From Psammoneis japonica (Eukaryota), in the NCBI GenBank assembly GCA_008632985.1, contig QPGO01000060.1:1-64000 (forward strand): a DNA stretch of 64,000 bases, in the 5' to 3' direction. The notes beneath the pieces were generated by a model that ran no database searches, was not told where the DNA came from, and saw nothing but the letters and a program-made list of their open reading frames with translations. The translations under genes were made by a program, and so were the position numbers. Position 1 is the first letter of the stretch. Every line of letters starts with the position of its first letter. Shown here one piece after another: positions 1-29,300 of the stretch.

Positions 1-74
1 GAGACTCATCTGCATTTAGACAGCAGTAAGGAGTTGTTGTTTGAATTCTTGCCATTTGCCTTCAATTTCTGTCA
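1..74 (+). repeat. 3' end of the 5' LTR
   Basis: gagactcatctgcatttagacagcagtaag...ttctgtca aligns to 6820-6894 with a few substitutions and one indel. Confidence 0.92.
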
Positions 75-1022
75 GATTAACAGTCTTGCTCATTGTCAAC
101 CCATTGAGCAACCGCCATCGTCGTCGTTGATTTACCAACGACGCCACCTCAATTCTGCGTGGACCTCCGTGTGCACTCTACATACATCGGCAAGTCTGCG
201 CGCATTCAATGCCAGGGCATTGGCAGGAAGTTAACGTCACCGTCAAGTCTCCTTGCCGCTGGACATCTGGATTGATTGTGCTGCCTTTGATCGCTGAAGA
301 CACACATTCAACGGTCATGTCCAAGTCCATCCTTGATCCTCATCCCTTGACACACCTGTTCATCGGTTGACGGTCAAGAACCCTGCATGTTCAAGGATCT
401 TCGTCGCTGAAGACACACGCACACACACACATCTTCACGGCCAAGAACCTGCACCCACTCTTCGGACTGCGGTTTTGCTGCCACTCTGCAAGCACACCGA
501 GTCCATTGCACCTGATCTGCCCCGGACCACTGGTGCTCTGCAGTTCCACCAGGTCCACGAGGACGACTGTGAGAGCAAGCAACCGTGATCACAGCCTGTG
601 TTGGGGCGAGGGTGCTTTCCCGCGTTTGTTCGTTCGTCCACAGCGCCTGACGCCTGCGTCAACTGGCCAGCCTGATCGGGAAATCCAACCGACACAAAAT
701 GAGAATGGTTCGGGGGTCTTGTCCACCTCTGGTCAGCTTACCTGCAGGGGTTTACAACCCGCTACTCCGCTCGCAAGCAACCCAAAGCGCCACTGGCTGC
801 GGGTTCGGACGTGCCGGCACAACTCTACGGACCGGATAGGAAGTTTAGCACTTGACAACGAATGGGACAGCAAAGCCCGGCAACTTCTGATTTTAAGATA
901 GATCAAGATTTCAAGTCAAGTCCATTTCAAGTCAAGTCTATTCTCACCCAAGTTTCAAGTCTGCCTTCACTGCCTTCGCTTCCCAACAAGAATTGCTTGT
1001 CCTGACACCACTCTTGTCTACC

Positions 1023-6671: not shown

Positions 6672-6894
6672 CTTGCCGCGCACAGTTTTGTGTGCTTTAG
6701 TTCCGCGCGTTCGCGCGCGATGTAGTTTGCTTTCGAGCCACAAGGCTCACAAGAACAATGACAGTAGCCCGATTGTACCAACTTGCACGTCTTTCGGCTC
6801 CTGTGACGGTCTCTGAGTGGAGACTCATCTGCTGTTTAGACAGCAGTGAGGAGTCATTGTTTGAATTCTTGCCATTTGCCTTCATTTTCTGTCA
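6619..6894 (+). repeat. 3' LTR (276 bp) with TGACAG...CTGTCA terminal inverted repeat
   Basis: Starts tgacagg directly after the purine tract ggggag and ends ttctgtca. Its 3' end matches window bases 1-74. Confidence 0.92.
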
Positions 6895-9100: not shown

Positions 9101-10040
9101 AATGATGACACTTGAGCTCACAACCATGGAAATGAGCTAAAATGGAGCAGCACAACAAGCTGAAGCAACAACAACTGTCTTGAGCTCAAAAAGCACCAGC
9201 AGCTGCTGCTTTCAAAAGCAATCCTGGTCCTCACAAATGTGAAAAATCCACAAGAAGTGAGAGAAGGATGGAGAAGGTCCCAAACGCACCCCCAAAAAAG
9301 TCAGCTGGAAAAAAGACAGTTTTCCATGCCATGTCCATGAAAGAAATGAAGGATGGACAATGACCAAGATGAAGCTGGTCATGGAGGACCAAAAAGGACC
9401 AAAATGACATGTCAGCAAACCTGATGGTCCATGAGTGGATGAGCAAGACCAAACCCTCACAAAATCTGATGGCAACATTGGCGTGCATCACAGATCACAA
9501 ACTCTCATCACTGGCAGAGGATGGCATTGTCACAGTGACCAAGGACATGGCAAAGGTGACGAGGCTGCTGGGAGGTGGCCTGTGTTGACTGACCTTTGCT
9601 GACCTGCACTCTGTGCTTGTTCATGCACATGATGAGTTTTTTGGCAATGTGCAAGGGAAAAAATCTGGCACTGAACTCTGGGCAGTGCAACAATCTTGCC
9701 AGGAATTGAGGCTGCTGTGACCCCACCTTGCAACAGCCGCAACTCTTCAGAGCAATCGACTCAGCAACACCACAAGACATGCAGCAGCAACCATGGGATG
9801 CACAAAAGGATTAAAGTACAAGAGGAAGAGCAATCATTGAGTTTCCACCATGCCAGAAAAGGAAGCTGGGGCCGAGAAGCATTGAAAGAACAATGGGTGT
9901 GCAGAAGTGACAACGAAAGGACTGCAGAGGTTTCTGCGCTGCAAAATCCACCATCAAATGCAAGCAGCAGATGCTCTGACACATCACTGCAAATGGCAAG
10001 CATCAGCACAGAACAGAAAACAAAACAGCATGTTGTAGTA
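9100..10040. repeat. Unclassified TpA/CpG-depleted decayed repeat sequence
   Basis: Same TG/CA-rich, TA/CG-poor composition as the adjacent LINE; no recognisable domain. Confidence 0.45.
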
Positions 10041-10087
10041 AAAGACATCCCTGCCCATTAAGTGCAAAAGTTACAAGGTCCTCAAAC

Positions 10088-13000
10088 TCAGCGAAGAATG
10101 TCCAAACCTCCCTCCTCGCGCGGAGATGTCCGAACAAATTCGATTTCTTTTTGCACCCATTCTAAAAGATCCCACTGTCTCTCTCCCATGTTCCATTTGA
10201 GTGACAAAAACAAAATGTCTTCAACATCATCTTCAACAAACCCTGCGAGAGATGGTTTCACCCTTTCTCCGTACAGGCGTTCAACTTGGGGAGCATTCAC
10301 CTTGTCACGAGCAACTCTGGGAAATTCATCAACAAAGCATATTGCTGAGGTTAGCATCAGGGCAACCTCATGCGATTCCTTTGTGACATCTATGCCAAAG
10401 TTAGTCTGATGGACAGCAGTCAACGCAAAATCTTTCCAGTCAAAGCTGTGCTGTTCACCGCGACAAAAGAGCACTGCGGTCTGTCCTTCTTGTGTGTGGG
10501 ATAGGTCCCGCACCACTACCAACTCCTTCACTTGTGGCAAAATTTCTCTCCATGTGCTTTCAATAACAGACGGGTCATACTCATCACCACCAAAATTGAT
10601 TGATTTCCTGCTGCGTCCAGCTATGGTCAGCTTATTCTCGGTAAAAAAGCCAACATCTCCAGTTTCATACCATCCCTCATCATCCAAAGGGGTATCGGTA
10701 CCGCTGTTAAGATATTCGATCATCATTTGGCTTGATCGGAGAATAATGCTTCCTAGTGTGGCGTTCACTTCTTTTCGCGAATTCGTGCCGGGGTTTTCGT
10801 CGAGCGGCTCTACTCGTACTTCAACACCGTCACACAGAGTAAGAGCATCAGCCTCGGTAACATCGCGGCTTCCGATAAGGTGCGCTTCACTCGATCCATA
10901 GGTTTCATATATCTTTACGTGTGTCCCGTCTTCGCGTGAAAAGGCAAGTATGGCTTCATCGATACATGCCGGTAGTAGCTTGGATCCAATAGTCAATATT
11001 GTCCGCATTGACTGCAACGTTAGTGTCAGGTCTTCTGGATCCATATTGCTTACTGCGTCTACAACTTTGTCTAGTTGATGAGGAGAAACAACTGCGGCTG
11101 TGGCATCATTTGCCAACAAATATTCAAGAAGCCCTTCTTTTTCGTCGTCTTCCTCCTCCTCATCTTCTTCTTCTTGGAACGACGAACGAAAAATGGTATC
11201 AAAGATTGGCATCACGCACGCACCGAAAATCAAAGATGGAACATACACGTTGTCAAGACCCGCAGAGTCATCCATGCCGAGAGGACAGACTATCTTTTCG
11301 CTAGGGTCGTGTGATAGTAACTTCTGGGAATTGGTAGCAGTGACAAATACAGCCTCATATGAGCTTGCAACAACCTTTGGCAACCCTGTCGATCCAGACG
11401 TGAACGTCAGAATCGCTTCCTTGCTAAGAGGGAACGTCTTCGGTGTGTAAGGCAGTGCTGATAAATACGACTTCCAAGGAATGTCTTCTTCGACCAGAAT
11501 CATATTCGGTACACCTGGCACGAAGTCCAACGCCAAAACTACTCGAGTCGTGTTGTGACTATTCATGACAGATGAATAGCTCTCACTGGTCAAGCCATCG
11601 AGCACTATAACTGCGGGGTCAATAATCTCGACTACCTCGGGGAACCGGGGGTGCCACATCTGTCGTGCAACATTTGCATACGTGAAAGCATTCTTGAAAC
11701 AGGCGAGCATGAGTACGTATACATCGTACTCGTATGTAGTTTCAGGGGTCACAGCGATCATCACTCTTCCATTTGACCTAGGTGGCATGTGATGACGGAT
11801 AATCGCAGCTGCACGGTCAGCGTCGGCGTGGAGCTGTGCGTGCGTTCGGACAGTATCTCTGTATTCCCCTGAGGACTTTCCAACAGATACCATTGCGGGG
11901 GAAACTGCGAAGTTCTTGTCTGGTGGGCCGTCCAAAATTACAGACGCAGCGTGGATTAAGGCTTGATGTGAAGCTGAAGCGGCTTGATTCGGTGTAACAT
12001 TCACTTTAGACGGTGTTCCCACGGATCCACCAATAATAACGTCTTGCTTCGTAATCAGGAACCGGACTACACGATTGCTCACTGAGACACCACCGGGCTG
12101 GATCAAGACGTGCAAAAAACAGAGAAAAACAGGCAACCACATGATGCTGCGAGTCGAGAAGTTCTTAAATTCTCCCGTGTTGTTGGAGATCGCGGCTCTT
12201 TCGCTACCAATCTTTTTCGACTTTAACACATCCATGATACCTGGCTTGTTCTGGCAGTCGCTCCCATTTAAATCTTTTAGGGCTGTCCTTGCTACTTTCA
12301 AATTCACAGGCTCTGCCCCAATGCCAGCCATATGAAACCCAGGCCCCATTGCTATGATGATGACGCTGCGGCTTTCCTCAGTTAATTCGTTCCACGCTTC
12401 TGATGCCATTCGTAAGACTGTGCTTGACGCCAAGTTCCCGCCATCTCTGAGGCTAGAACGCATCCGAGCTATAGATTTTTGAGAAATATCAACCGCGGTG
12501 TTCTTTTCCATAGCATCAACCATCTTGGATCCGCCTGGATGAATGACATGCGACACTGTGGTCATTGGTGCAGCCCCCATAGGAGACACAGAAGACCTCT
12601 CGCTTGTTTTGGCAGTAAGGTCCGCAGCAAATCCAGGCACGTGCTTCTCAACAACGTCACAGAGCTCTTTTGTAGTGACAAAGTGATATCCCATTTGGTC
12701 GTAGTCAAAGTAGGAGACATGAGTCACGTGAGGGACACACTCTTGTTTTCCCGCAAGCACACGAAGCCCGCAAGCTCCTTCATTCCCATGGACGGAGTGA
12801 ATGCTATCTCTCACGGAATGTCCGCCCCGCATCACGCAAGCAGAGGCACAATCGCCGAATAGAGCAGAATTGAGGAACACACTCATACCTTGCTTGTGGG
12901 GCCGGAAACCAAGGGAGCAGAACTCCAAAGAGAGGATGAGTACGTTCTGAGTAGGGTTTCCCAGCAGCAAAGTTAATGCCATATCTAGGGCCACCGCACT

Positions 13001-14224
13001 CGCAGCGCAACCCGCTTGTGTCACCATCGGCTTGCAGGTCTTCTTGAATGGCACAAGGTGCGTCAAGTAGTGATACAGATTTGGAAATGGATACGGCTGA
13101 TGTGTTGACACAATCACGTAGTCAATATCTTCAGCCGTCAACGCGGCCTCTTCGAGAGCTTTGGCGATAAGCCCATCGTCACCACACAGCTCACGCTGCG
13201 CAAGCTTGATGAATATATCGCGCTGCAACTGGGGAGTGATCTTCTGCGAAAGCTCTGGGAGGCCGTCAACAATAAGCTGATCACCTACTTTGAAAGGGGG
13301 GTTTTCCAAGGGAACAAGAAGAACGCCACTTTCAACAGAGGCGTGCTCGCCAGGCAGGACAAGCTCTTCGTTGTACTTTCCCGTAACTTTTTTCCAACTT
13401 TCATCGTGCAGAAGCACAGGAGGCTCAACTTTATTGTCGACCGATACGTTACCTGCCGAAGGCTCGTTTTTTTCTGTACGGAACAAAAGTGGGTGCACTT
13501 GCGCATCCATTCCTACCTTGATGGAGTTTTCAACATGCGGTTTGTGCTGGTGTGTCGAAGAACTGCTTGGTGATTCCTTGGATCCTCGTTCTTTGATTTC
13601 CCGCGACGCGTCTAACGCGTCAAAGCTGTTTGATCTCCCCACCGGTTCGACGACTCCTTCATCACGGTCACCAGTTGTTGGTTGAACTACTGTGAATCCA
13701 ACCCGACCAGTCAAGTTGATATCTTTTACGATGGCTTCCAACTTTCCCATCTCCCCCGAGTCTCCCAGCTCAAGTTCGACCAAGCTGATGCCGCCTGGTT
13801 CGCTAGTGAAGATGTTTGAACATTTCATGTAAAGCCCAAAGGCCGGACGCACAATGTGCCGCTTTTCAACTCCCATGGTATTGAAAATGATATGAGACGC
13901 TTGCTTCAGTGCCCCCTCAGGGTCATTTTGATAGTTTCGGAGGATGTGTGGAAGCTTAGTTTGGATTGCCAGTGCAAAATCCTTGTTAGAAACCACATGT
14001 TCCGGGAGCCAGACCGAGGGCTTGAACAAGACCGGGTCTTTCCAACAATCGTGTTCGTCAGACGCCTGCCTTGCGGCACTGTCTCTGTCGAAGTCTTCTG
14101 ATTTAGAGCCGTGGTCGTGAGTCTCAGCCTCGGGTTTGAAGGTTTTTTCCCTGAAGGTGGTTGACCGTCTGTTTTCCACTTGCGCTTCCGCCCCAAGGAC
14201 GTCTTTCCCGAAAAGCTTCTTCAT
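10088..14224 (-). CDS. Type III polyketide synthase (RppA/chalcone synthase-like) fused to a C-terminal ANL adenylation (acyl-CoA ligase-like) domain, ~1378 aa
   Basis: Uninterrupted ORF, probable start MKKLFG at 14224 (ORF open to 14584). PKS triad: AGCAAS (Cys ~13008), IHPGG (His ~12540), GGNLASS (Asn ~12435); also LEFCSL, ALFGDCASA, MGPGF. ANL motifs: FTSGSTGLPK, YETYGSSEA, WYETGDVG, IAGR, FPRVARDKV. Confidence 0.92.
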   Translation of the reverse strand: MKKLFGKDVLGAEAQVENRRSTTFREKTFKPEAETHDHGSKSEDFDRDSAARQASDEHDCWKDPVLFKPSVWLPEHVVSNKDFALAIQTKLPHILRNYQNDPEGALKQASHIIFNTMGVEKRHIVRPAFGLYMKCSNIFTSEPGGISLVELELGDSGEMGKLEAIVKDINLTGRVGFTVVQPTTGDRDEGVVEPVGRSNSFDALDASREIKERGSKESPSSSSTHQHKPHVENSIKVGMDAQVHPLLFRTEKNEPSAGNVSVDNKVEPPVLLHDESWKKVTGKYNEELVLPGEHASVESGVLLVPLENPPFKVGDQLIVDGLPELSQKITPQLQRDIFIKLAQRELCGDDGLIAKALEEAALTAEDIDYVIVSTHQPYPFPNLYHYLTHLVPFKKTCKPMVTQAGCAASAVALDMALTLLLGNPTQNVLILSLEFCSLGFRPHKQGMSVFLNSALFGDCASACVMRGGHSVRDSIHSVHGNEGACGLRVLAGKQECVPHVTHVSYFDYDQMGYHFVTTKELCDVVEKHVPGFAADLTAKTSERSSVSPMGAAPMTTVSHVIHPGGSKMVDAMEKNTAVDISQKSIARMRSSLRDGGNLASSTVLRMASEAWNELTEESRSVIIIAMGPGFHMAGIGAEPVNLKVARTALKDLNGSDCQNKPGIMDVLKSKKIGSERAAISNNTGEFKNFSTRSIMWLPVFLCFLHVLIQPGGVSVSNRVVRFLITKQDVIIGGSVGTPSKVNVTPNQAASASHQALIHAASVILDGPPDKNFAVSPAMVSVGKSSGEYRDTVRTHAQLHADADRAAAIIRHHMPPRSNGRVMIAVTPETTYEYDVYVLMLACFKNAFTYANVARQMWHPRFPEVVEIIDPAVIVLDGLTSESYSSVMNSHNTTRVVLALDFVPGVPNMILVEEDIPWKSYLSALPYTPKTFPLSKEAILTFTSGSTGLPKVVASSYEAVFVTATNSQKLLSHDPSEKIVCPLGMDDSAGLDNVYVPSLIFGACVMPIFDTIFRSSFQEEEDEEEEDDEKEGLLEYLLANDATAAVVSPHQLDKVVDAVSNMDPEDLTLTLQSMRTILTIGSKLLPACIDEAILAFSREDGTHVKIYETYGSSEAHLIGSRDVTEADALTLCDGVEVRVEPLDENPGTNSRKEVNATLGSIILRSSQMMIEYLNSGTDTPLDDEGWYETGDVGFFTENKLTIAGRSRKSINFGGDEYDPSVIESTWREILPQVKELVVVRDLSHTQEGQTAVLFCRGEQHSFDWKDFALTAVHQTNFGIDVTKESHEVALMLTSAICFVDEFPRVARDKVNAPQVERLYGERVKPSLAGFVEDDVEDILFLSLKWNMGERQWDLLEWVQKEIEFVRTSPREEGGLDILR

Positions 14225-15111
14225 GGAAGGCGTGCGAGAGAATGGGAGAGTCCACGAGTTTGTGAAATGAGGTCGCGATAAAAGAAATCTCGATGGAACC
14301 TGCAGGGAGTAAATGGTGGTGCAGTTGCAGACAATGTGTGTGAGTGATCGACGCGCAAGTGGAACAAACCAAGGCTCTCCCTCGAGACACAAGAGAGAAT
14401 ATGTCTGATGTTTGCCTTGTTTGGTGACATACCAGTACTGGTTGCTTTGAGCTGCACTGCTAAAACGAACGAATGAAATTTGGGAGAGGAAATAATTTTC
14501 AACGCGTGAATCTCCGAGTGCTTCCCGCCAAAACGAAAACGCATCCAGCCATGTTGACGAGATGGCACAGCTTTCAGCTTTCATGCCATCCGGCCGTTAT
14601 TAAATAAATAAAAACTGTATCGAGAATAAAGGACCTCTATCTTTTAAGTGGAGAGGGCCCAACTGACTCTATAATACAGCACATACTGCATAAATGTACA
14701 TTAGGTGCTGTGTTACTTACAGTAGGCCGCACTTGGGGAAACTTTCACACATACACTTCTCTATGCAATTATATGTATTCGTGTTCGAATAAAATAAAAA
14801 TTGGTGCGAAAATTTCACACATTTTTCGGCACGTGGCCTGATGATGCGTCAAAATTGGCTTTTGCTGACTCATAATAGAGTTGAAACACAATTTGATTGG
14901 CTGAAAATACAGCGCATGGGAACTGAACAACGGTCCACACAGCTTTTTCACTTCCTTGTTTTGCAAACTGTTTGTTGCGCAGAATTTCGCAATTAGAAAA
15001 ACCTGGACAACAGTGCAGCATTGCAAAAACCAGTGATGCACAGCAAGTGGACAGACTCCCAGCAACACTGAATTCACGTTCCCCATGATGACAACACTGT
15101 GCTGCCATCCA

Positions 15112-16340
15112 ATGAAATGGATGAGAAAGAAAGAGCCAACTGTTCCTTGCAGTTGTTCCACAAACTGAGACTCCTCCTGTTGCTGTTTGCGTTCTTTCTG
15201 GGTTGTCAAGGCATGATGACATCCTCACCTGCCATCTTTCCCCAGTCTCCGTCGGTCCAGGCAAAGAAAGAAAACAGCACTTCCACTCCCACTCGACTCT
15301 TGGTGGCCACCATTGTGGGAACCTCCAAGTTAGAAATGGCCCTGCACATTGAAGAATCCTGGCGGCAGTTCTTGGGTCCAAATGATGCACTTTGGACCGT
15401 TTGCGATGTTGGTTGTTCCAACATCGCAGGCAGCTCCGTGGTCGAAATGGATCCGGAATTAATCCATTCCGTTCGTCCAAACTTTGAAGAAAAAAACTGG
15501 GGATGCCAATTGGCACAACTCAAGTTTTGTCATGCCTTGATTTTGCAAGTGCAAGAATTTGCAAAAGACAGCAAACTGTCTCAGTGGACATTTGTCAAAG
15601 ATGACGACAACCATTTCCGTGCCGATCGATTGATGCAATTGGCGCAGAGGGAGTGGACTTTGCCAAGGAAAAAGCAAGTCTGGCAGGAGGGTGGCTTGGA
15701 CAAAGCACAGAAAGACAACATCCACCGGGGGATCATCTCTGTGGCCCTCCCAAAGGCTGTGGTTGGCCCTCGGGAGGTGCCGGATGGTTGGTCAGTCAAG
15801 CCATGGCACTGGAGTTGGCCACCCACCTGCAAGACCAAGTTTTTGATTTTATGTGACACAAACTGGAACAGTCCAAATGGGCCTTTCACTTTGACATGTG
15901 GCTTCCGGTTGTTGCCAATTGGGGTGGTGGGAAACTTCGCCATTCTCCTGCTTTGGTGCACTTGCAGCCGGGACAAACAACCTGTTTTGACCCGGGTGCG
16001 AATGCCACCTCCTTTGTTGCCCTGCACATCATGAAAGACTTTGTCAATGCACATGGTGGCACAGAAGAGGCTTTGAGGAGGATTGAAGACTGCATGTGGC
16101 TGCCCTTTGTGCCACCCATGGAATCACTGTGGGATTGGATGGCACAAACCAAAGGGCAAAATGCATCCATCGAGCATTGTGGGACTTCTTAACAAAAAAG
16201 AAAAACAAACCTCCATTCAACATTTCTCCCCTGACTTTTTTCATTGGTTGGCAAAAAAATTAGATGCTCATTCTTTGTCCCAAATGTTGCATCATGACAA
16301 AGTGGTTGCTCTAAGAGCTGCATCCAGGAAAGAGTTTTGA
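15112..16340 (+). pseudogene. Decayed Fringe/GT31-like glycosyltransferase gene
   Basis: N-terminal hydrophobic anchor (LRLLLLLFAFFLG) and WTFVKDDDNHF, resembling the WxxxxDDDxY motif of GT31/Fringe enzymes. The frame breaks after ~15650. The sequence is TA-depleted and the long ORF contains no Tyr. Confidence 0.5.
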
Positions 16341-17131
16341 GGGAGGTGCAGACAATGTGATCAGCCAAACAACACGTGCAAAAGCTGCCTGTGGCTCAGA
16401 ATTGCCACAAGGAGTCTAGCCAGCTAGTTGGCAAAGGGATGCAGTGCACATGAAAGCCAAGTCAAAGGCAAGAACATTGGAAGATGATGTTGGCAGCTCT
16501 CAGTTCTCAATCTCTGTTGCTTGCAAAGTGAGAGCCCTGGCAGCCCAGCTGGATTGAAATTTGAAACTGACGTCATTGGTGTCAAAAATCCAGTGCTTCA
16601 TGACATTTGCTCGGTTGCCACAACAAGAGCACAAGAAAACCAACAAGACTGAGTGAGTTGCTGTCTGTCTTGCATGACCCTTTGTAAAGTGAAGCTGATG
16701 ATTCTGATGACTCCCAGTGGCTTGTCAACCTTGTCACTTTGCCGTCATCAACTCTGGATGTGCAGCAATTGTTGTTTCTCAGTCAAGAACAAAAAATGTT
16801 CAAACCTTGTGATGACCAGATGGACCCTGCAGACCAGCAGCGCTGTGCAGCTGAGGCTGAAAGTGTCATGATTCTCATGGTGACTATGCTGCTGATGCCA
16901 AGGCCCTGGAAAATTCCAGCCAAACCCTTGTGTGCAGCTTAGAATTCCTTGCCGAGGCTGCCAATTCCCACTTTGGAAGACACGTGTTGCCACTTCCTTC
17001 CCACCACACTTGCCATGGCCGAAAATGATCCACAAGCAAAAAGGAGTCTCAAGGAGGCCAAATTTCCAGTTTTGCCTGAGGAAAAAAACCGGCAGACTGG
17101 CCAGCCAGCAGACACTCTGCTGGAGTGCTCA

Positions 17132-17351
17132 GAGCCAAGAGGGCAGGCCCAGCACAAGGAGAGGATGCCTTGTGGGTGGCTGAGCTCTTGGAGGAGTCAC
17201 CGTGCGACAGTGGCACGCAGCAGAAGGCAGGCAGACAGATGTGCGGACAACAACGAGAGGCCACCCCAGTTTCCCTCATTGTGTTTGGTGGACTGCCAGT
17301 GATGATGGGATCAGTTGCGTCAACCCAATGTGGGCCGACAATGCTGAAAAT
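17132..17351 (+). repeat. Split direct repeat A1
   Basis: gagccaag...cccagcacaaggagagga...gctgagctcttggaggagtcac...cccagtttccctcattg...gggccgacaa...ctgaaaat recurs at 25473-25708. Confidence 0.88.
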
Positions 17352-18620
17352 GTTGCTTCTGCCAAGTGGCATGCCTTGCACAATTGCCCACAAGCTGCAC
17401 ATGGTGCCAGTTGATCCATGGATTGGCTTGACCATCTTCAGAGCCTGCAAAACCATGATGAATCAGCCATCAACTTGAATCCGGTAATGTCCTGCAAGCC
17501 AAGTTGATTGTGCATGATGCCTGCATTGCTCTTGTTGCTTCTGAGTTGTTCTGTCAGAGTGCGAACAATGCAGTTTGGTGTTTTGTGTTGGCAGGTTGGG
17601 ATTGCTCCCATTGCCACAAATGCCCCTTTGATCATGTTGGATCCAGATGGTTTTCTGCAAGCCAACTGATCAGGATTGAATTGTGATCCACCTCGTTTTG
17701 TCTGATCTCACATCAGAATGTGAGTGCATTGTCCATGCATCCCATTGCTTTCCAAGCATGTCAACCTTCCGTTGATTGGCTGCTCTGCATCTGCCTTCTT
17801 TTCTCTCAATTGTGCTGAATCCGGACAACATCTACAAGCCGGTTAATCTGGATCACTGCCCTGATCCACCTCGTTTCATCTGATTTCAACCTCAGAACAT
17901 GAGCACATTGTCAATGCAGCCCAACATTGTTCAGGTCCACTGCCCTGCAATTGTCAGGTTGCTCTAAAAATTGGCCTCTGTGCCATGATTCTCTCTCCTT
18001 CCTTCACCCGCCATTGCAGTCACCAGATCTCACATCCATCTCATGTGTGTTCATGAACAGACTACATTCTGACCATTGCAATGGTTCCACATGAATCACT
18101 TTTGTGCTGTGACATGTTCTGAACACATTCTGTGTCAGAGTGTTCAAGCAAGGATGCTCCCCCACAAACATCTCAACAAAACCACTGATGCACAAAATCT
18201 GACACAAATTTGTGCACATTTTCAAACATGCCCCTCTGATCCAGGAATTTCTGCAAATGTTTGATTCCTGATGCACCTGGCAGATCATCTGTGCATTCTA
18301 TGGTGTTTGCATGAAAAATCGTGACCACAACTTTTGGAGATTTCAAATCTCTTGGGACAGACCTTTGGCTTCCCTCCATTTTCTTTCTGTTGGTCAAAAT
18401 TTCGACCTGCTCCACGTTGCTCTTGGTCTTGCAGTGCCTTGCAATTCTGATTCTGATTGTGTGAAGCAACTCCCTCTGAATTGCTCCGGTTTTCTGGTGC
18501 AATTTGTGCAGCATTCTACACCAAACTTTCCATCCAAAAACTTCATTTCTCTCCCACAAAACTTTGGTTTTGCCTTTTTGCACTTACCTTTCAAGCCTTC
18601 TCTTTGTCTCCCATCTTGCC

Positions 18621-20880
18621 ATGGCTGCCAACATTCTTGCTGCTGTTGAGCATGGCAAGAAAGCTTCTCCCATCAAGCGCTGTTCCCAGTCGGGAACACA
18701 GACCGAGTTTGCTCCTAAGCAGTCCAAGCTGGTCCTTCACTGTGACATCAACGGTGCTCTTGCCAACCATGTCTGCGGTCAATTTGATCAATTCTTGATG
18801 TTCTGCAAAGGCTGCATCATCCCTGTTCCTTTCATCAACAGTGGGAACCAAGTCAAGTTCTTGTCAAACTCTTCCGATGATGTCAGAGAAGTTGTCCCCA
18901 TGTTGGGCACTCACCAATGTTTCCAAGGACACTTTGTGACTCCAACCCCAATCCCAACCCTTGTGCATTGTGCTGACATTGTTGTGTTCAACCTGCCTTG
19001 AGCTGAGACTCCTCCAGATGATGTTGAAGGTCCACTTCTAACGGACGGCAATCAAGATGCGGCACCTTTCAAATGTCTCCATTTCAGTGACCCCACTGCT
19101 CAGGATGATCAACCTGTCATTGCTGCTCCTCCGATGGCATTCCCTGCACCTCCAGGCTGTTCCCACCCATTGGATTTTATTCCTGGAGGAAACTGCCCTA
19201 CAATGGCGGCCAATTTTCCTGCACTTGACATGTGGCAGAAAGGCATCACTCACATCCAGCAGCATGATGCCAGCTGCTCTCTCAAGGAAGGCAGACCTCT
19301 TTTTGACCAAGCTGTGGATGGTCTCCAAGTTGTTGATGACTATGTTGGTTTTAACATCTGCAACTTCTGCAACAATGATTTTCAGGCAGTTGCACCTTTC
19401 TCGGACAACTGCCGTCATGTCCAAACTGCCATCAAGACATTTTTGGATGCAACCTGGCAGGTGCCAGGTGCCACAATTCCAGTGGGCCAATGGGCCAATC
19501 CCGGAAATGGTGCCCAAGCTCACGGAGCCACCACTCACACTCCCCTTGCTGTCCAAGTCAAGGCCCCTGAATCCAAGAAGAACAAGGACCTCAAGAAGAG
19601 GGCTGGTGACATTCATGCCCATTTTTTGCTCATGTTCAGTCACAAGGTGGTTGAATCTGACACTGTTGCACTTCGAGAGCTCCAACAAGTTTTTGTTGAA
19701 GCCCTCCAAGAGTCTGGTGACACTGAATGGGCTCGCCTTGTCAACAAGATTGTTGCTGCGGCCATTGATGGTGTCAAGTCTGTGGACATCTTTGACCAAG
19801 CAGTGGCTCTTTGTCCTGCTTGCATCAACAAGGCTTTCACAGACGGAATCCATTGTTTCAAGTTTGTGGGTCAACCACTGAACACATCTGTCACTGCCTT
19901 TTTATCAAAGATCAACCTTCTGAACTTCCTCACCCCCCATGTGGACACCTCAGAATGCATCAAGATTGCCAAGGAAGGTCAGGAGCACAGCAGCCATTCT
20001 GTGAATGCTGACTCTAAGACCACAACTGCTGAGTCAATCAAGAAGTCAACCCCACACACTCATGGCCATGCTCAAGATTCCTTGGATGTTGTTGCAGCCT
20101 TGAGCAACTTCAGGCTTGCGTTCAGTGCTCTCATTGAGAATTTCGATGATGATTTTGTCTGGCAACAGCCAAATTGTTGCTGTGCGGTTGCTTTTGGTGA
20201 GATTGGAAAGCAATGGATCACGAGTGATTGAAATTCTCACAAGATTGCCGCCAATGTGCTCAATGACATTCAAACCATCATTTGCACCTTTGCTCAGCTT
20301 GGAAGCATCCCTCAGTGCCGCGAGGTGATTTGCACATCCCAAGATGTCAGTGTCAGGGCTCTGGATGTCTCTGAGCATCTCACAAACCAATCCATTCAGG
20401 ATTTGGAGGCCAACATTGGTCATGGTCCTCCCAGAACCTTTGGGAGCAAGTGTGCACTCTGCCAGCTTGCCAAGAAATCCAACACTGCTCCTGCGACTGC
20501 CAAACGTGCACTGGACTCTCCTGCTTCAATCACGTCTCTGGCCAAGAAGCCAAAGTTGCCTCCAACTTTGACGGCAGACGAAATTGAAGTCTGCAAGAAG
20601 CTGGGAATGCTTGTTGTCTCTGGCAACCCTCGTCAGCCCCCTGTTGTCCCTGTTTTGGCAAAGAAGGGACCCGACTCCAACACCAAGGAATGTTTGTTTT
20701 CCTTCTTCTTGATTCGTGGGTTTGGCTGCAACCATTCCAAGTGCAAGAAGCCTCATGTGGCAAACTTGCGCAGCCTTCCGGAGTCAAAGCACAAGGAGTT
20801 GATTGACTTTGTTGAGAAGTCCAATGCTCTTTCCTTTGCTGAAGGAAAGGGCCCCAGTGGTGCATCTTCTTTGTTTTGTC
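18621..20880 (+). pseudogene. ORF1 (gag-like) of the YR retrotransposon, fragmented
   Basis: Consecutive long + ORF pieces (18504..19001, 19134..20231, 20256..) upstream of RT, ending in a Cys/His cluster (C...CNHSKCKKPH). Assignment is mainly positional. Confidence 0.5.
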
Positions 20881-21423
20881 ATCTGATGAACTGGGGCACT
20901 TGGTTTTTGATGTGCATCAGTGACTTGCATGTTTTCTTTGACCTTGCACCACCAGCAAAGATCATGGACTCCAGAGCTGCACACACAGGTGGCACACCCA
21001 ATGCCTTTTCTTCTGCCAGTGCTGATGCATTCATGGAGGATGACATCATCCTTCCTCTTGCGGTTGGCAATCTCAAAAATGCTTCTGCATCCCTGGGGCT
21101 GGCAGCTCAGGATGTCACTGATGCAGCTCCAGTTTTTGTCTGACAACGTTGAGGAGTTTTGCCCTGTTTTACCCCCAATGACAACATCAGGGCATTGTCC
21201 CGCCCCTGTTCCAACCATCAATGACTCTGTGAAAAAGGCTGAACGAAAAGCATTTGTTTGCAGCCATCTCTCTGACCATGTTCGGTCTCAGCTGGAAAAT
21301 CCATTTGGCAAGGATTGCATTCATCAACTGTTTGCTTCAGAGGCCACTTGTGTTGCTGCCAATTTGGAAGTCTGGTTTCTTGTCTTCTAGTGCCACTGGA
21401 GAGAGCTTGTCTGCATCCAAGGG

Positions 21424-23700
21424 ATGTGTTGTGAACTTGGACAACCTGTGTTGCATGGCCCCAGATGTTTGGGTGTCTTTGTTGTCTCCTTCGGGATTGT
21501 CAATTTTAATTCCTTGAAGGGATGTCCTCAAGGCTGGGAAGAAGAAACGGAACCAAACAAAGACCATGTCAACCAGACTGCAGCAGGGACATTGCACTTT
21601 GATGGCAACCTGGCATCATTGGTCAGATGGGTTGGCAGCCCGCAAGCCGGAGCACATCAGCATGTTTGTTGGATCATTTCCTTTTTGGAGGAGAAGGTGG
21701 ACCCGCAGGTCATGCAAACTCTACAGTGCATGTGTCTGGACAGGGTTCTGGCCCATTGCAATGGCCACAATGCTGAAGAGAACTTCCAGGCCCATTTTAA
21801 TTGTGGGAATCATCCATCAGTTGATCTTGACCTGGAGAAAATGTGCAAGACACTGGTCGAGGACTCCAAGAGAGGCTTTGTCCTTGTTTTCGACAAGCAA
21901 ATCATCCCCCACATCTTAAACTGCCACTTGTCTCCCCAGAGCCTGGTTGGCATCAACAAGTCATTCAAGAGCCCGCAAGCAGTGTCCGACAGTGCGTTCC
22001 AGCCCACTCCATCTTCCATGGCTGTCAACGATTTTTTGTTGCTTGAATTCAAACCTTCCCATGGCAGTGCTGCCGTCAAGATGGACATTGTGTGCAGGAT
22101 GCATGACACATGGATGATCTTTCATCCAACAGAAGACATCCACCCAGTGGATGATGATGCCATGGGGGTGCACAGGACAATGAAGCATCACCCGAACCTT
22201 GTGGCGATGCACACTTCTGTCCAGTGTGGGTGTGGTGTTGCTCAGACTGGCTGCAACTTTGGAGACACCCCCAACCCTCCCGACTGGGATGGGGGTTGGT
22301 CCCAGAGCCACCAGCAATTGGCCCAACATGCTTTCCACATTCTGAATGTCATCAAGATCATGCAGCCTTTTTGCCAGAATTTGAGTTCCCAGCTCCTCCT
22401 GTGGAGGATGACATCTCTTCATTTGCCCAAGCTCTGCCAGACACATTAAACCCTGGGGGTTTCCAGGGTGGCCTTTGCATCTCACCGACCTTCAAACACC
22501 ATGTCATTGATGATTTGCATGTGGACGTCCATGACATCCTGCTCTGGACAGTCTCTGCAAGTGTGCTTGCAATCCATGTTCTCCAAGGTTTTCCTTGCAC
22601 AGAAGTGCCAAATGCTTTGAGCTTGGAGAAGCTCAACCTCCTCCTTTGCTGGATTTGCAAGCCACTTGGGAGGCTGCATGACACCAGGAGTTTGACTGTC
22701 GGCATGCCTGACTGCAAACATGACAAGCTTCTGGCTGTCCTTCAAGATTGGATGGGCAAGGTCAATTGCATTCTTGGGGAGGTGGCCTCTTTGTTGGGAA
22801 CACTGGAGAACCACACCCAACACTTCCCTTGGGCTTGTTGCTGGTTTTTTCAACTTCAGAACAATCTTTGGGCAGATGTGATTGCCAGGCACCATGTTGC
22901 CCAGTGCGTGTTCGACAACTCTGGTCATCATAACCAAATTTTGTTCCAACTTTCCCCAAAGCTCCTCTGCCGTCTGGAACCTCTTCTTGCTGAAGAAAAA
23001 GCCCAGCTTGTGTGCCATCTCCACATCAAAATCACAGTTTCCATGTCACTTTGTTGGTCCTTGCAGTTTGTTTGACGATGTGTCGAGTCAACTCCCAACC
23101 CTTGGGAGGCCGAGATTGGAGCTGTCATCCTGCGTGATCCCCACTGTCAGGGGATTGGTGATGCCATCAGTCTTGGTGGTGGCGGATGCTGCCAAGAATT
23201 TCAATTTTGGTTTCTTGTGCTTTGGGGTCCTGAAATTCAAAGAGGGCTCCACCTGCGGTCAGACTCTCCGGGCTGTGTCTTGATGAACTCTCTGGAGTTC
23301 ATCATTTCCATTTTGGTCCTGGCCAACATTGTTGCTTTTGTGGAGTCTGTTGATGAACCACCAGACCCTGAATTGGTCTCAGCTCTCTTCTCTTCCATGC
23401 CATCCTGGAGAACTTGGTGGTCAAGATGCGGACCGACAATGTTGTCGACAATGGGTGGCAAAATGGACATGTGATGAGCTCTCTCCAAGGCCAGCAACTG
23501 CTGCCAATTTGGTGTGCACTTTGCATTCGTGCTCACCTTGGCCTCAACTCTGGAGGCGTCCACTGGTCAGGCAACCAAATGCAACTGGCAGATGACATGT
23601 CTCAACTGTCTGACCCTCACTTGCCTCATTCTGTTCATGTTGCCCAGCTGTGTCAGAAATGTCCTTTTCTGAGGACTTGGACCTTTTTTTCTCCCCAGTT
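21424..23700 (+). pseudogene. Reverse transcriptase/RNase H of the YR retrotransposon, fragmented
   Basis: CGNHPSV, HLSPQSLV, DDDAMGVHRTMKHHP, NFGDTPNPPDWD and HHVIDDL (decayed YVDD); RNase H-like GDAISLGGGG, NSLEFI, TDNVV, HWSGNQMQLADDMSQL. Confidence 0.75.
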
Positions 23701-23789
23701 GAGAGCTGCTGCAACTGCTCTTCTCTCATCTGTTCTCCGAACTGCTGCCAGCCCCTGTGGAGACCCTGCAGTGCTCAGGACAGCTTGCA

Positions 23790-24870
23790 CAAGATGCACC
23801 CACCATTTCAAATTCACCAAGGATGTGAAGTGGGATGTGGGTGACCCGGAAATGCTCGTGGAGAAGCTCTTGGAGCATCATTGCCAACTGCAACTCACCA
23901 TGCATGCCATGCATGTTGCAGAAGGGACTTCCATTTTTTGTGAGAAACTAAAAGCCAACACCACATTTACTTGTGCAAAGGATGTCATGTCATTCATCAA
24001 GTTGTTTGGACGCTGCCGCGACTGTTGGCATGACCACTCTGTTGACACTGAGTTGAGAAAGTTGTTCCAAGACACAAAGAAGGAACTCCAGTGATGCAAC
24101 GAAGCTCCTGAGTGTTGCAAAGGTTTTGGCTCCAAGATGCTCCAAGAATCTAAGGAGCAGGCTAACACTGTCTGTGCTTCCAACCCGGATGGGCTGCTCT
24201 GCTCCATTTCTGATTGGCGCCAAGTGCGCCCATTCTGTGGTGCCTGTCTCCAAGAGTGGGCACAGACAAAGAGCAGATCTGACCCAGCTCGTCCGGCAAT
24301 TGATTCCCAAGGTGGCACCCAAACTTGGCATCTCAATGACATTGAGGTCAAAACTGACAACTGCCAATGCACCTGAGGGGCACCGACATCTTGTCAGTGC
24401 CCATCTCTTTGATCTCCAAGATGTGGGTCATGTGGCTCACCCAAAAAAATGAGGACAACGGTGAGGAGAAACTTTTTACTCTGAACCTCCAGCAAGACAG
24501 GCTTGACTTGGTCAAACCAACACACCATGTCATTGAGTGGTTTGTCTGCATCCATGGCACAAAGATGATGCCACTGCCCCTCTGTCCATTTACAAAAAAG
24601 CAGGTGACAAGGCAAAGCTGATCACCTCTGTGGAAATTGAGGATGACGTGCATGAAGTTGCCTCAAAAATCTGTCGCCTGGACCCTGTTGAGGATGCAGA
24701 AGCACTTTTGCACTGGTCAGCCCACTCTCTCCATGTTGGAGATTGTGTGTTGCTCCACCAAATGAACCTTGGTGCACAGTCTGTCCAATGGCTGTTGCGA
24801 TGGAGGATTTGTGGTTTGCCTCAGGAACTCTGCTCTCTTGGCAGACCACCAGTGCAGAGCTCTTGACTGC
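23790..24870 (+). pseudogene. Tyrosine recombinase of the YR retrotransposon, fragmented
   Basis: GACLQEWAQ (box I R-x-x-E remnant), WLTQKNEDNGE (TQKNG-type motif), SAHSLHVGDCVLL (HSLRVGA) and WLLRWR (box II). Confidence 0.75.
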
Positions 24871-25250
24871 TCTGCAGCCATGCCCCACCTCTTGTAAGAA
24901 ATTTTGAAAATTTCAAAATTTCTGTGACATTTCATTTTGTGTGTGCCACATGTTGCATGTTTCATGTTCCTTTTTTCAAATTCAAACAAGTGCAATCTGG
25001 TTTGATTGTGTTGGTTTTCTCATGCTGTCACTTGCATCGGTTTTCACTGTGCCAATTTCTTTGAATGTTTTTTCTCCTGCACAGCACATTTCCCCATTTG
25101 GGGCCCATGCAATCCTGACCGTCCACCCTCTTGAGGGTGCTGACCTTCAGTTTAAATCCTGTTTTTTCTTTTTTCTGGCTGGCCATGTGTTGCCTCTGAT
25201 GACATGGGTGCATGCGCTCCACTTCATGCAATGCGTCAGCAGCCACATGG

Positions 25251-25947
25251 TCTGTTCACACAGTGTTGGGGAACAAAATGGATGGAACCAGATCTGCAGA
25301 TTTGCTCCCTGTTTTCCAGCTGCTGTCCAGCAGCACCACACGAACACACATGCTCCACACATTGGACACATTCATGCATTGATTGTTGCACCCATTTTTC
25401 GGCTTGCGCGCTGTGTCATGTCATCGGGGTTGCAGCTGAGCCAAGGCAGTGGCAAGGAATCTGCGATTCTTGGAGCCAAGACGGCGGGCCCAGCACAAGG
25501 AGAGGACACCTTTTGGGCGGCTGAGCTCTTGGAGGAGTCACTGCACAACAGCAGCACCCTGCAGAAGGCAGACAGACAGATGGACAACGATGAGAGGCCG
25601 CGGGCGGGCCGCGTGCCCCAGTTTCCCTCATTGTTTTTGGCAGACTGCCAGCAACGATGGGATCAGTTGCATCCACCCGATGCGGTGTGGGCCGACAACG
25701 CTGAAAATTCCCACCCAACCCAGACCTCTGTTCACTCAGTGTTGGGGAACAAAATGGACCGAACTGGATCTGTGGATTTGTTCCCTGTTTTCTAGCTGCT
25801 GTCTCAGCAGCACCACACGAATGTATGTGCTCCATACATTAGATATATTCGTGTATTGATTGTTTTGTCCATTCGGCAGCTTGCACTGTGTCATGTCATC
25901 GGGGTTGTAGCCAAGCCGAGGCGTGGCAGGGAATCTGCGATTCCTGG
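25251..25947 (+). repeat. Split direct repeats B1-A2-B2
   Basis: tctgttcac...gtgttggggaacaaaatgga...ggaatctgcgattc occurs at 25251-25472 and 25727-25947, flanking the A2 copy. Confidence 0.9.
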
Positions 25948-26344
25948 TCATTTTTTCATTCCTTGAATGGTCATTATTTCGATCTTGTGTCCCCATGACT
26001 TTTCATTTGGTGCCTCCATCGAATGATTTATGTCAAATGTCGCGATTTATGACAAAGGTCATAAACTCTGTTTTTCATATAAGCCGAGATTTATCGGTAA
26101 TCGTGCAAATTTCGCAGTGGTCATTATTTTATTCCAATCTGCGCGGTACTTCGTAGGCTTGTAATACGACGTTGCCTGGACATTTCGTTGTATCGAAAGG
26201 GTCACAAGTCAAAAAGCGCGGAGCTGCCGCCACCAAAACTGCACAACGCACAACACAACCACCGTCAAGCCTTTCATTCTGTGTGCAAGGTTGGTAGGAA
26301 CTAAAAGGACGACCGTCAAAAGGACCAGAATCATCATTCCCAAC

Positions 26345-29300
26345 ATGATTCTTAGAGTATTTGCCGTCACGTGTCTACTATGTCCGTCGGTGACGGCTCT
26401 CCGTGGGGGGAGAAAGGCTGCAGAGCGTCATCCTATCGACAACCACAACGACATCGAAGAATTTAGCTTTGAAGATGATCTTGAGATGGATCGTCTTGTC
26501 GAGCTTGACATAATTCAGGAAATGATGGAGAGCACTTTGCTCGGAAAGGAGGACGAGGAGAAGAGTAGTCTTGCTTCCAACTCGTCGTCATTCCCGCTTC
26601 AAGATGTAGTAGTACAAGCTCCCGTACAAGAAGCGCACCGCTCACTGGTGGCGGAACCTTCGTTTGCCCCTCTCGACTGCAACACTGCAGTCAGTCTCGA
26701 GACTCAACAGTGCACGACACCATGGTCTACGTATGTGGGTGCGAATTCCACTTTTGAAGAGGAAGTAGTGATTGGATGTGGTGATTGTGTGATCTTTGAT
26801 TATACTGGATCTGACATGCTCCTTCTGGACTTCAAGAGAGGCTTGGATATTCAAGGAAAGCTAGTTATACCTAATGCAACGAGGCTGCAAATCGAGACAA
26901 TCCATGTAAGAGTACAAGGATATCTCGAAATGACATCAAGAAAGATCGTGGACGGAGTGGAAGATATTAGGTACGCTGTGGCATGTTCTTGTTCTGTTTA
27001 TGCTCAAGTCACGTTGAAAACCTTCTTTCTCCTTACGGTTTTGGTTCATTTCGTGCTATTATATATTTCAGAATTATTCTCAAGGGAAAGTCCATATATA
27101 GGACAAAGTTTACACCCGCTGATAGTAACTCTGCTCTTGGTAGGCAGAGCCCAGGGAAGAAGCCGTTCATTGTTGCCGGAGGAAAAATTACCGTCCACGG
27201 CCTTCCCGAGGACACACCCACATGGGTAAATATACCTCTTGACGACAGCGTCTTTCGAACGTATGGCACCGCCCATGTTTTTCACACTCTTTGGTTTCTT
27301 TCCGTTCGCTTTCTAGCTACCCGTGCATGATGTGGTCACTGCAGATGTCGGCCCGGCACTTGATGTATCTCAGTTTCCTTCCTTCGATCCACCAGAACCA
27401 CACTGCCCGTCCGACGGAATTCTACTCAATGAAACGTTCGCTTCGGCTGGCACGGTCGACTCTTCCAGCGTCTTTGCGTGCCTCGGATCCGAGATTGAGC
27501 ACACTACAGCATCTACTGCGGACGGTGTCACCAATGTCGTTGTTTCAAAGGAGAGAACAAACAAACGCCATGGGCTTCAGATTGACCTCAAGAGGATTAA
27601 ATCCTGCCTCAAGGCTGGCGACACCATGATTTTGACTGCCAGAGTTAGACTCTCCGTGGACGGTTCTAATTCTACCAATGCGTTGACTACATGCGCCATG
27701 AGTGGAGATGGCTGTCTGGCTGTCATTTCGGAAGTCATGAGGGCTGACACTTACGTTTCCCGAAAGGAAAAGTACAAGGAAAGGCAGTCCTTCCAATTCA
27801 AGTATGACGAGTGGTTGGTTGTGTCTTCTGAGTTTATGTTTGAAGAGAGTGAAGTCGAGAGCGATGTAATTTTTCAAACGTTGCGCTTTGAAGGTCCACT
27901 AGAAGGTGTCAATATTGAGATCGACAATGTTGTTCTTAGGTATCCACCAAGAGAGGCCTTTCCTGATGGATCCACGGTGTGCCAAGATTTGGTCGGTACC
28001 AACGGAGACGCGCTCCAAGTTGGAGACTCGCCTTATCCATTCTACAAGAACTATGGCCCGATCAATCTACAAGTCAAGCAGGAAGCCGGCAACCCGTACT
28101 TTGCGGTGTCTGGACGTAAATACGCGTACTACAGAAGTGACATTGACAACGATTACCAATGGACTAGTATGGCGGTCGAGTTTCCCGTTGGATGCGTACC
28201 AAAGGGATCAAGGTTTCGGTAAGAACAACATTTTCTTTCGTTCGGCGCGTCTAGGTTTTCCTCTTCTCACCAAGGATGCATCGATTGCTTGTACCATGTT
28301 TCACTTGAACAGGTTCAGTATGAGGGTGCGAGTGCATCCGAATCAAGAGTATAGTAATCCGGAGGGGATATGGGTGTATATCAAGGGTTTTCACAACTAT
28401 CCATCGAAGGACAGAACTTATACGAAGGTTACCCAGTGCCCTAAGAGTAGCGGTGATTTTGTCTTTTGTGAGGCGGATTTCGAAGTCAAGGAGTCCATGA
28501 CAAAAAACGCCCCCTACAAATATGAACTATACTTCCAGACCGTTAATGCCCCTACCGTGGAGTACGACGTTGACGATCTTCAATTCGCCCGAACCTCTGG
28601 TCCTCTCTTCCAGGTGGTTGTCAACAACGAAGTAAAGAGCAAGTGGGGAGTTGGTGCCGAGGTGCTGGTAACTTCAAATACACTCGATTACGATGAACAG
28701 CAAGTGCGCACCATCACGAGTATCACGGACCACACCGACAGTGCTTTTGCTGTAGTGGCTCTCAATGATGTGATTACTCTTCCGTCCACAGTCGCCAAGA
28801 ATCCTGCGTATGCGTCCGAAATGGCATTATTGTCCCGAAACATAGTGCTGGAAGGAGCAAAAGATGACAATACAACGATTGGAGCGCATTTTATCGTGCA
28901 GGAGACTCCAAACGTGCCGCAAACTCTAGAAGGTGTTGAATTTCGGAACTTTGGCCAACAGAAAGAGCTCGCGCGCTATCCCATCAACATGCATATGTGC
29001 GGCGACGTTCCTGGGACTCGCATTACAAAGAATCTTATTCGCGAGTCTCATCAACGTTGCGTTGTCATTCAAGGTACCAATTTCGTCGAAGTTAGTGACA
29101 ACATTGCCTTTGATACTAGAGGTCACTGCTTCATGACGGAGGATGGCAGTGAGCATGACAATATGTTTATCGGAAATTTGGGCGCGCTGACTAGAAACAC
29201 TCCATCGAGTGGCCTCATCGTCCGAGAAACAGGAGATGGATCCGAAACTGACAACAACGCAGCAACGTTCTTTATCAATAGCGTTGCAAACACGTACATT

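Follow-up and report, generated by a model that had tools for sequence, protein, structure and literature searches.

What removes almost every TpA dinucleotide from a bounded stretch of a genome, and why do the few sites that remain share a flanking context? The question is raised by positions 16180-25200 of the window analysed here, the first 64,000 bases of contig QPGO01000060.1 of Psammoneis japonica (G+C content ~49%), with these 9021 bases containing 40 TA (observed/expected ratio, o/e, of 0.07) and 121 CG (o/e 0.23), and an excess of both CA (906, o/e 1.66) and TG (1005, o/e 1.75). The stretch lies within the largest of four sharply bounded islands (TA o/e 0.00–0.19, CG o/e 0.00–0.5, CA+TG o/e 1.55–2.0), the genic DNA between which has a TA o/e of ~0.4–0.8 and a CG o/e of ~1. 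It is likely the remnant of a dead element with three open reading frames (ORFs) which underwent A:T>G:C hypermutation targeted to 5'-TAY-3' (Y, pyrimidine; R, purine; N, any base) together with a separate decay of CpG, the agent of the former probably being an adenine deaminase that acts on DNA. The changes are specific for one dinucleotide and its flank, run in one direction, fall on both strands, are confined to mobile elements, and recur in copies carried by other organisms.

Flanking context of the surviving TA sites

The 40 TA sites of 16180-25200 comprise 21 YTAR, 15 YTAY, 4 RTAR, and 0 RTAY, within one site of the manual tally in the initial annotation (~39 sites as 21/14/4/0). From the NT and AN frequencies of the stretch itself, 12.5 YTAR, 11.1 YTAY, 8.7 RTAR, and 7.7 RTAY would be expected, and the proposed context bias thus persists after correction for base composition (χ2 p = 6e-4), with the lack of RTAY alone reaching p = 1.9e-4 (binomial). 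The genic and unique DNA outside the islands (33.5 kb) shows the opposite bias, its 1222 TA being distributed as 201 YTAR, 378 YTAY, 280 RTAR, and 363 RTAY, and against this background the contexts of 16180-25200 differ with p = 1.6e-9, those of all four islands pooled (41/23/13/3, in the same order) with p = 9e-15, and those of the three other islands pooled (18/7/9/3) with p = 2e-6. The pattern had also been claimed for 40200-44300, where the 16 TA (7/4/5/0) do lean in the same direction but, taken alone, do not depart from their own composition (p = 0.32).

Retention was calculated from the TA contexts of the islands relative to those of the background, scaled to island length and strand-symmetrised. 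It is highest for TTAA (0.69), followed by CTAA/TTAG (0.29), CTAG (0.16), GTAA/TTAC (0.14), CTAC/GTAG (0.09), ATAA/TTAT (0.07), and GTAC and ATAG/CTAT (0.05 each), and is 0 for both ATAC/GTAT and ATAT. A Poisson model in which every TA consists of two half-sites, each contributing an independent, multiplicative survival factor, fits these data (deviance 11.8, 12 degrees of freedom, p = 0.46), which are incompatible with uniform loss (p = 3e-14), half-site survival in the window being 0.79, 0.41, 0.19, and 0.08 where the base 3' of the adenine is A, G, C, and T respectively.

A better proxy for the ancestral sequence is provided by 76 related loci of ordinary TA content. Compared with these, the 6022-base gene body of the element holds 21 TA against ~233 expected, with retention of 0.27 for YTAR (11 of 40.5), 0.10 for YTAY, 0.03 for RTAR, and 0.00 for RTAY (0 against 65 expected, p = 6e-5). 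As the sense strand of the relatives carries 40% YTAY compared with 15% RTAR, the excess of YTAY over RTAR among the survivors of the window (15 vs 4) stems from the ancestral make-up of this strand.

Fate of TA sites in partly mutated relatives

The related loci belong to a set of 80 from the same element family, fetched by a scan of metagenome contigs, of which 76 have a TA o/e of 0.51–0.86 and two (L051 and L044) of 0.48, with the remaining two, L040 and L056, at 0.29 and 0.22 and retaining one RTAY among their 79 TA. L040 and L056 have unmutated relatives of 83–93% nucleotide identity, to which they were aligned (11 relatives for L040 and 9 for L056) and scored wherever the majority of the relatives reads TA. 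There is no nucleotide match between the island and any of the 80 loci (E ≤ 1e-5), and the two loci therefore serve as an independent replicate in other hosts.

Of 149 majority-TA sites, 47 are still TA, 59 have become TG, 38 CA, and 5 other dinucleotides, such that 97 of the 102 changed sites went to TG or CA. None became CG, and because no site was hit twice, a T immediately 5' of the adenine is required. TA was kept at 16/25 YTAR, 7/14 RTAR, 23/82 YTAY, and 1/28 RTAY sites. Counted per half-site, A>G occurred at 74/152 TAY compared with 23/146 TAR (odds ratio 5.1, Fisher p = 9e-10), with the comparison of mutated and retained TA in these alignments thereby recovering the motif deduced earlier from the survivors alone. 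The A>G rate by 3' base is 0.55 for T, 0.45 for C, 0.18 for G (14/77), and 0.13 for A (p = 2e-8), this being the only significant flank; positions -4, -3, -2, and +3 have no effect, and G at +2 shows a trend only (p = 0.06–0.085). The half-site data hence support the initial view of TAY as the target, with RTAY exposed on both strands and YTAR on neither, but the preference shifts by degrees and does not divide purines sharply from pyrimidines.

The dependence on a 5' T is evident in each locus, with A>G at 44/107 adenines after T (41%) and 23/628 after other bases (3.7%) in L040, and at 18/45 (40%) and 5/260 (1.9%) in L056. T>C before A compared with elsewhere amounts to 28/105 vs 58/796 in L040 and 10/46 vs 11/329 in L056, and CpG transitions are just 2–3 times as frequent as non-CpG ones in the two loci. 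The TAY rate of L040 is equal per target on the sense (41/81) and antisense (16/32) strands, with the TG and CA outcomes interleaved and strand-coordinated clustering absent (38 runs vs 33 expected). Two unmutated relatives given the same treatment as controls kept most of their TA (60/75 in L033 and 82/95 in L011).

Elsewhere in the family, the copies L051, L052, and L023 share 99.9% identity, have a rather low proportion of RTAY (15–22%), and may be mildly edited, and L016 and L017 lie on one metagenome contig as two element copies in the same orientation ~5.6 kb apart.

The mutated element

The three ORFs were placed on the island by tblastn with the ORFs of related metagenome contigs (Table 1). 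ORF3 is a tyrosine recombinase: the PDB matches of a profile of 15 relatives are confined to Cre/Tre (17 sequences, best E = 0.01) and cover the HxxR...W...Y region, and Pfam Phage_integrase matches 4 of the 15 (best E = 4.2e-5). ORF2 has 368 homologues at E ≤ 1e-3 in a library of 1.8 billion proteins (best 39% identity, E = 1.9e-61), and is probably a reverse transcriptase (RT)/RNase H, an assignment we treat as a lead only. Of the 30 named clusters found through its ESM features, 18 share the RVT_1-carrying set (13–55% of members in the three best), with other clusters carrying RT_RNaseH; a Pfam search of 35 family members gave nothing significant, the ORF2 profile found no match in the PDB, and hhalign against the Copia pol was not significant (probability 0.19), with the C-terminal RNase H motif alone being aligned. 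ORF1 of the element has no Pfam match, and a word-indexed search with the ORF1-like frame 19002-20228 gave no homologue.

The tyrosine recombinase, the probable RT/RNase H, and the flanking repeats (Table 1) together point to a probable DIRS-like retroelement as the victim, present as a single dead copy. In the contigs of run X1, the summed depth is ~340 over 17132-17351 and ~520 over 25251-25947, compared with a baseline of ~60, and the gene body lies at about 1–2 times the baseline. The terminal repeats as a whole (16765-17415 and 25228-26500) have a depth of 290–520 in this run, 5–9 times the baseline, and are thus multi-copy in the genome.

Compared with its homologues, the ORF2 remnant contains no Tyr (0 vs 3.0%), more Cys (5.4 vs 1.6%), His (7.1 vs 3.8%), and Gln (6.8 vs 3.7%), and less Arg (2.3 vs 6.6%). 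None of the five columns occupied by Tyr in most homologues has kept it, these now reading His (three), Cys, and Phe, and the 14 columns of conserved Arg read Arg and Gln (four each), His (two), and Cys, Lys, Met, and Ser (one each). In ORF3, TGC (Cys) has replaced the codon of the catalytic Tyr at 24817-24819, and HSLHVG stands where relatives have an invariant HSLRVG box. With both the conserved and the catalytic Tyr residues destroyed, the proteins of the element cannot work.

The direction of change is also evident from paralogous repeats of the window, in which CA<->TG swaps at the same dinucleotide make up 36 of 139 adjacent double differences, as expected if an ancestral TA or CG decayed independently in each copy. 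Where one copy has TA and the other CA, the TA carries a 5' purine in seven of eight cases, and the outermost and least affected repeat copy (25705-25970) keeps GTAT, ATAC, and ATAT, its inner twin having CA/TG. Taken together, the loss of Tyr and the divergence of the repeats indicate that TAY>TGY/CAY and CGN>TGN/CAN changes arose in place, after integration.

TA loss without CpG loss

A Copia-type element occupies the start of the window (Table 1), its positions 1-74 matching 6820-6894, with a TA o/e of 0.09–0.35, a CG o/e of 0.70–1.05, and no relative of its polyprotein within the islands. The open frame at 3252-6671 (1139 aa) contains 0.7% Tyr, 3.6% Cys, 5.4% His, and 6.3% Arg, and resembles a "ghost ORF", free of stops, as left by an element that was TA-hypermutated and is presumably dead. 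Frames of this kind mislead both gene callers and estimates of transposon activity. As this element is depleted in TA with normal CpG and Arg, and L040 retains 114/163 CG, the TA process is separable from the decay of CpG, and the state of the Copia-type element suggests that TA editing precedes it. A single deaminase responsible for both TA>TG and CG>TG was set aside, with the two elements showing the processes to be separable.

Proposed mechanism and alternative explanations

In the mechanism proposed here, TA is converted to TG or CA by an A:T>G:C transition on either DNA strand, one site at a time, at a rate governed by the nucleotide that follows the adenine (T ≥ C >> G > A), making 5'-TAY-3' the target. 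RTAY is struck from both strands and lost first, and YTAR, above all TTAA, is struck from neither and survives. Decay of CpG to TpG/CpA would come later, presumably via cytosine methylation, with both processes converging on CA/TG. The agent is probably an adenine deaminase on DNA, converting A to I (read as G) and directed at chromatin that is silenced or foreign, and would be of the kind behind the TpA hypermutation of Bigelowiella natans; an enzyme had been put forward at the outset from the tetranucleotide specificity, which is reasonable but not demonstrated. In the standard code, TA>TG/CA makes no in-frame stop (TAA becomes TGA or CAA, TAG becomes TGG or CAG, and all other changes are sense to sense), which explains the long open "ghost" frames of the islands and of the Copia-type element, in which Tyr gives way to Cys or His.

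A natural TAY adenine deaminase directed against silenced mobile DNA might further constitute a genome defence shared by distant lineages of the stramenopile–alveolate–rhizarian (SAR) group, namely diatom-like stramenopiles, a chlorarachniophyte, and whichever hosts carry the metagenome copies, a broader reading to which we give somewhat less than even weight. If true, this defence would be the mirror image of fungal repeat-induced point mutation (RIP), killing proteins via Tyr>Cys/His with their frames left open, and the TAY half-site footprint would be a direct assay for finding the enzyme.

Several observations weigh against adenine deamination of TAY as set out above. With 9–18 TA each, the three smaller islands do not individually depart significantly from what their base composition predicts. 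Host genes or family relatives stand in for the true ancestor wherever TA contexts of the islands are compared with an ancestral state, and part of the surviving TA of the window may have formed anew. Among 77 loci the correlation between TA o/e and RTAY share is weak and confounded by GC content (rho 0.29, p = 0.01). The 40 listed differences between the window and runs X1 and X2, a comparison that includes paralogous contigs at 90% identity, are mixed, with few at TA or CG, and so give no sign of a process that is still active. Furthermore, the flank preference matches that of no characterised deaminase.

The same footprint would result if the altered base were the thymine of 5'-RTA-3', for example a T oxidised by an enzyme, or otherwise modified, that mispairs with G and leads to T>C. 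The data are symmetric in this respect, T>C at RTA being A>G at TAY on the opposite strand, and from the sequence the altered base could equally be either. Uracils substituted at position 5, among them 5-formyluracil and 5-bromouracil, can pair with G and so produce A:T>G:C, and the 5-hydroxymethyluracil of dinoflagellates is found preferentially at TpA and TpC. An altered thymine is nonetheless unlikely, with no evidence here of thymine-modifying enzymes or modified T, and with deamination of adenine being both a simpler known route to A>G and the hypothesis of a preprint on B. natans (10.64898/2026.01.13.699255).

RNA-level A-to-I editing of the retroelement transcript by an ADAR- or ADAT-like enzyme, fixed by reverse transcription, would suit a victim that is apparently a retroelement, and known RNA adenosine deaminases favour a 5' U, according to the Discussion of the preprint and PMC5630033. 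As reverse transcription copies the sense RNA only, however, such editing predicts A>G on the sense strand alone, which is contradicted by the equal sense and antisense rates of L040 and by TG and CA outcomes that are interleaved along the element. The repeats of one integrated copy, moreover, diverged through independent CA/TG outcomes after integration, and the targets in B. natans are integrated DNA viruses. We therefore regard RNA editing as decidedly improbable.

Deamination of adenine at TAY is likewise favoured over the proposal that the surviving TA of the window are mostly new, arising by C>T or G>A at CA/TG, with the excess of YTAR reflecting creation rather than sparing. Some survivors must be new, given that 91–100% of the original TA are gone, and L040 itself gained TA at 12 of 526 majority TG/CA sites. 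Against creation as the main source, the survivors do not follow the abundance of their precursors, with 244 ATGT/ACAT beside 0 ATAT, compared with 314 TTGA/TCAA beside 32 TTAA (all strand-summed), and the loss of pre-existing TA in L040 and L056 follows the same flank order, leaving this proposal very improbable. Hardly credible, finally, is an intrinsic or selected avoidance of TA (through codon or dinucleotide usage, or escape from UA nucleases) or an artefact of assembly or base calling, for although many viruses combine a shortage of UpA and CpG with an excess of CpA/UpG and the window may derive from long reads, these explanations are at odds with the ordinary TA content of 76 of the 80 family relatives, with the destruction of conserved and catalytic Tyr, with the same footprint in contigs of unrelated metagenome projects and with the contigs of run X1, which reproduce the island with 1–9 differences per 0.7–2.3 kb, though this run may be the window's own sample.

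Window layout and host genes

The features of the window are listed in Table 1, with the edges of the four islands sharp to within ~250–500 bases.

Table 1. Coordinates of the mobile elements, their parts, and the depleted islands in the window
Feature	Position	Strand	Basis and remarks
ORF1 remnant (~800 aa in relatives; without known domain)	18873-20870	+	tblastn with L004 ORF1: 25% identity over 716 aa, E = 3.6e-30
ORF2 remnant (~950 aa in relatives)	21118-23807	+	tblastn mapping and homologue family
ORF3 remnant, tyrosine recombinase	23765-24894	+	tblastn; profile of relatives
Probable terminal repeat	17132-17351	+	78% identity to 25473-25708 (self-BLAST, alignment)
Right-end repeat block	25251-25947	+	25251-25473 matches 25727-25947 (83%); 25473-25708 matches 17132-17351
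Main TA- and CG-depleted island, encloses 16180-25200	15001-25500		500-base windows: TA o/e 0.00–0.16, CG o/e 0.08–0.47, CA+TG o/e 1.55–1.88
Second depleted island	7001-10000		10 TA: 7 YTAR, 0 YTAY, 2 RTAR, 1 RTAY
Third depleted island	39501-44000		18 TA: 7 YTAR, 6 YTAY, 4 RTAR, 1 RTAY
Fourth depleted island	54001-56500		9 TA: 4 YTAR, 1 YTAY, 3 RTAR, 1 RTAY
Copia-type element (RVT_2)	1-6894	+	RVT_2 E = 2.7e-23

None of 94 stop-to-stop frames from the main island reached the Pfam threshold, the lone match below it being to DUF7658 (E = 0.0029, 17.4 bits compared with a cut-off of 27), and no domain was found in 63 frames of the three other islands (15 ORFs in 7001-10000 and 30 in 39501-44000). 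Seven island frames have a Tyr content of 0–0.2%. Within the third island, 39412-40223 matches 41800-42771, and a tandem repeat lies at 42197-42433. Across all four islands TGCA and CATG are 2.9- and 2.35-fold above background, and CG is retained best in CCGG (0.49) and worst in GCGA/TCGC and ACGC/GCGT (0.12), which hints at an effect of context in the decay of CpG as well. Short patches of low TA with near-normal CpG are also present (48501-49500, 53501-54000, 14001-14250, and 10001-10500; TA o/e 0.00–0.31), some of which adjoin islands and overlap the terminal parts of host genes (one with an HA domain, the other a polyketide synthase fusion), and these may represent leakage of the TA process past the borders of the elements.

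Judged by its genes, the host genome is diatom-like (stramenopile), with the best named matches of the HA-domain protein in Thalassiothrix (32% identity), and those of a gene with SNF2 and zf-CW domains in Thalassiosira, Extubocellulus, Amphiprora, and Mayamaea (36–44% identity). The region 59706-61361 (+) and 62631-63913 (-) encodes this SNF2 helicase, which is ATRX-like, carries the zf-CW finger as a histone reader, and is probably part of a longer gene, and, close by on the minus strand, two frames with an NYN domain and an RRM. The polyketide synthase fusion is an intron-free ORF of 1498 aa at 10088-14584 (-), in which a type III polyketide synthase with chalcone/stilbene synthase N and C domains is joined to an AMP-binding adenylation domain. 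A CEMIP beta-helix protein is encoded at 27906-29369, and 34773-38941 (+) carries DUF1800 in two adjacent frames followed by DUF1501, a gene pair typical of bacteria and here a possible horizontal acquisition.

Comparison with known systems

TpA-directed hypermutation of foreign DNA has been reported once so far, in the 2026 preprint of Mettrop et al. on B. natans, a single rhizarian alga. In literature searches covering diatoms and other protists, it was the sole match for transposons depleted in TpA or hypermutated by A>G. According to its main text, 230 of 231 de novo mutations in integrated nucleocytoplasmic large DNA virus (NCLDV) and virophage DNA of B. natans mutation-accumulation lines were A>G or T>C, with all GC-biased de novo mutations at TpA and some lines mutating at ~1e-7 to 1e-6 per site and generation (10.64898/2026.01.13.699255). 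TpA-poor, CpA+TpG-rich clusters enriched in RT/DDE domains are described genome-wide, and an ADAT2-like DNA deaminase is proposed (10.64898/2026.01.13.699255). The likeness to the islands described here is close, with A:T>G:C at TpA yielding TpG/CpA on either strand of bounded foreign or mobile DNA. The two systems differ in that B. natans is a chlorarachniophyte with viral inserts, whereas here a diatom-like host has transposons as the victims, and depletion is far deeper here (TA o/e 0.07, compared with a Rho of 0.45 in the NCLDV region of B. natans). Furthermore, CpG decay is superimposed here, and the TAY half-site rule is not in the main text of the preprint, which never uses the terms "trinucleotide", "tetranucleotide", "flanking", "context", or "CpG". 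In contrast, the mutations of B. natans were seen in real time, and those of the present elements are known from their sequence footprint. What is new here is the host lineage, the transposon victims, the near-complete erasure of TA, the coupling with CpG decay, and the TAY half-site rule. The same signature in diatom-like transposons and in unrelated metagenomes suggests a widespread genome defence of protists.

RIP is similarly a bounded transition hypermutation with a dinucleotide preference that disables mobile DNA. As described in PMC2621366 and PMC7296669, it proceeds by C>T, mostly at CpA, creating TpA and stop codons. The islands show the opposite, with TpA destroyed, no stops made, and CA and TG in excess, and the body of the element lies at single-copy depth in run X1, such that duplication is not evidently needed. 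The decay of methylated transposons at CpG shares with the islands the loss of CG (o/e 0.0–0.3) and gain of TG/CA, but cannot remove TA, and the Copia-type element and L040 have lost TA with little or no loss of CpG.

The adenosine deaminases of RNA, among them the tRNA enzymes TadA and ADAT2-ADAT3 with their side activities on mRNA or DNA, offer a further comparison. TadA edits TAC well and typically recodes Tyr to Cys, with TACG in a loop being needed and TAT reported as not edited (PMC5630033), and amphioxus ADAT2 can deaminate DNA, acting in E. coli preferentially on the A of GAA and the C of TCG (PMC10354150). TadA and ADAT resemble the present pattern in converting A to I beside a 5' U/T, a 5' T being required here and TAC being a good target. 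They differ in that TAT is here mutated at least as readily as TAC, with G at +2 showing no more than its trend. ADARs are metazoan enzymes that favour a 3' G and act on RNA, whereas here a 3' G is disfavoured and both DNA strands are hit. Their likeness lies in clustered A>G with a 5' U preference, as given in the Discussion of the preprint.

The TAY rule, the equality of the strands, and the site-by-site pattern are constraints on any candidate enzyme, and argue against a simple reuse of TadA- or ADAR-like specificity. We know of no natural deaminase that has the editing of DNA adenine as its main job, with adenine base editors having had to be evolved from TadA, and the enzyme responsible for the TA-poor islands would be of interest well beyond algal genomics.

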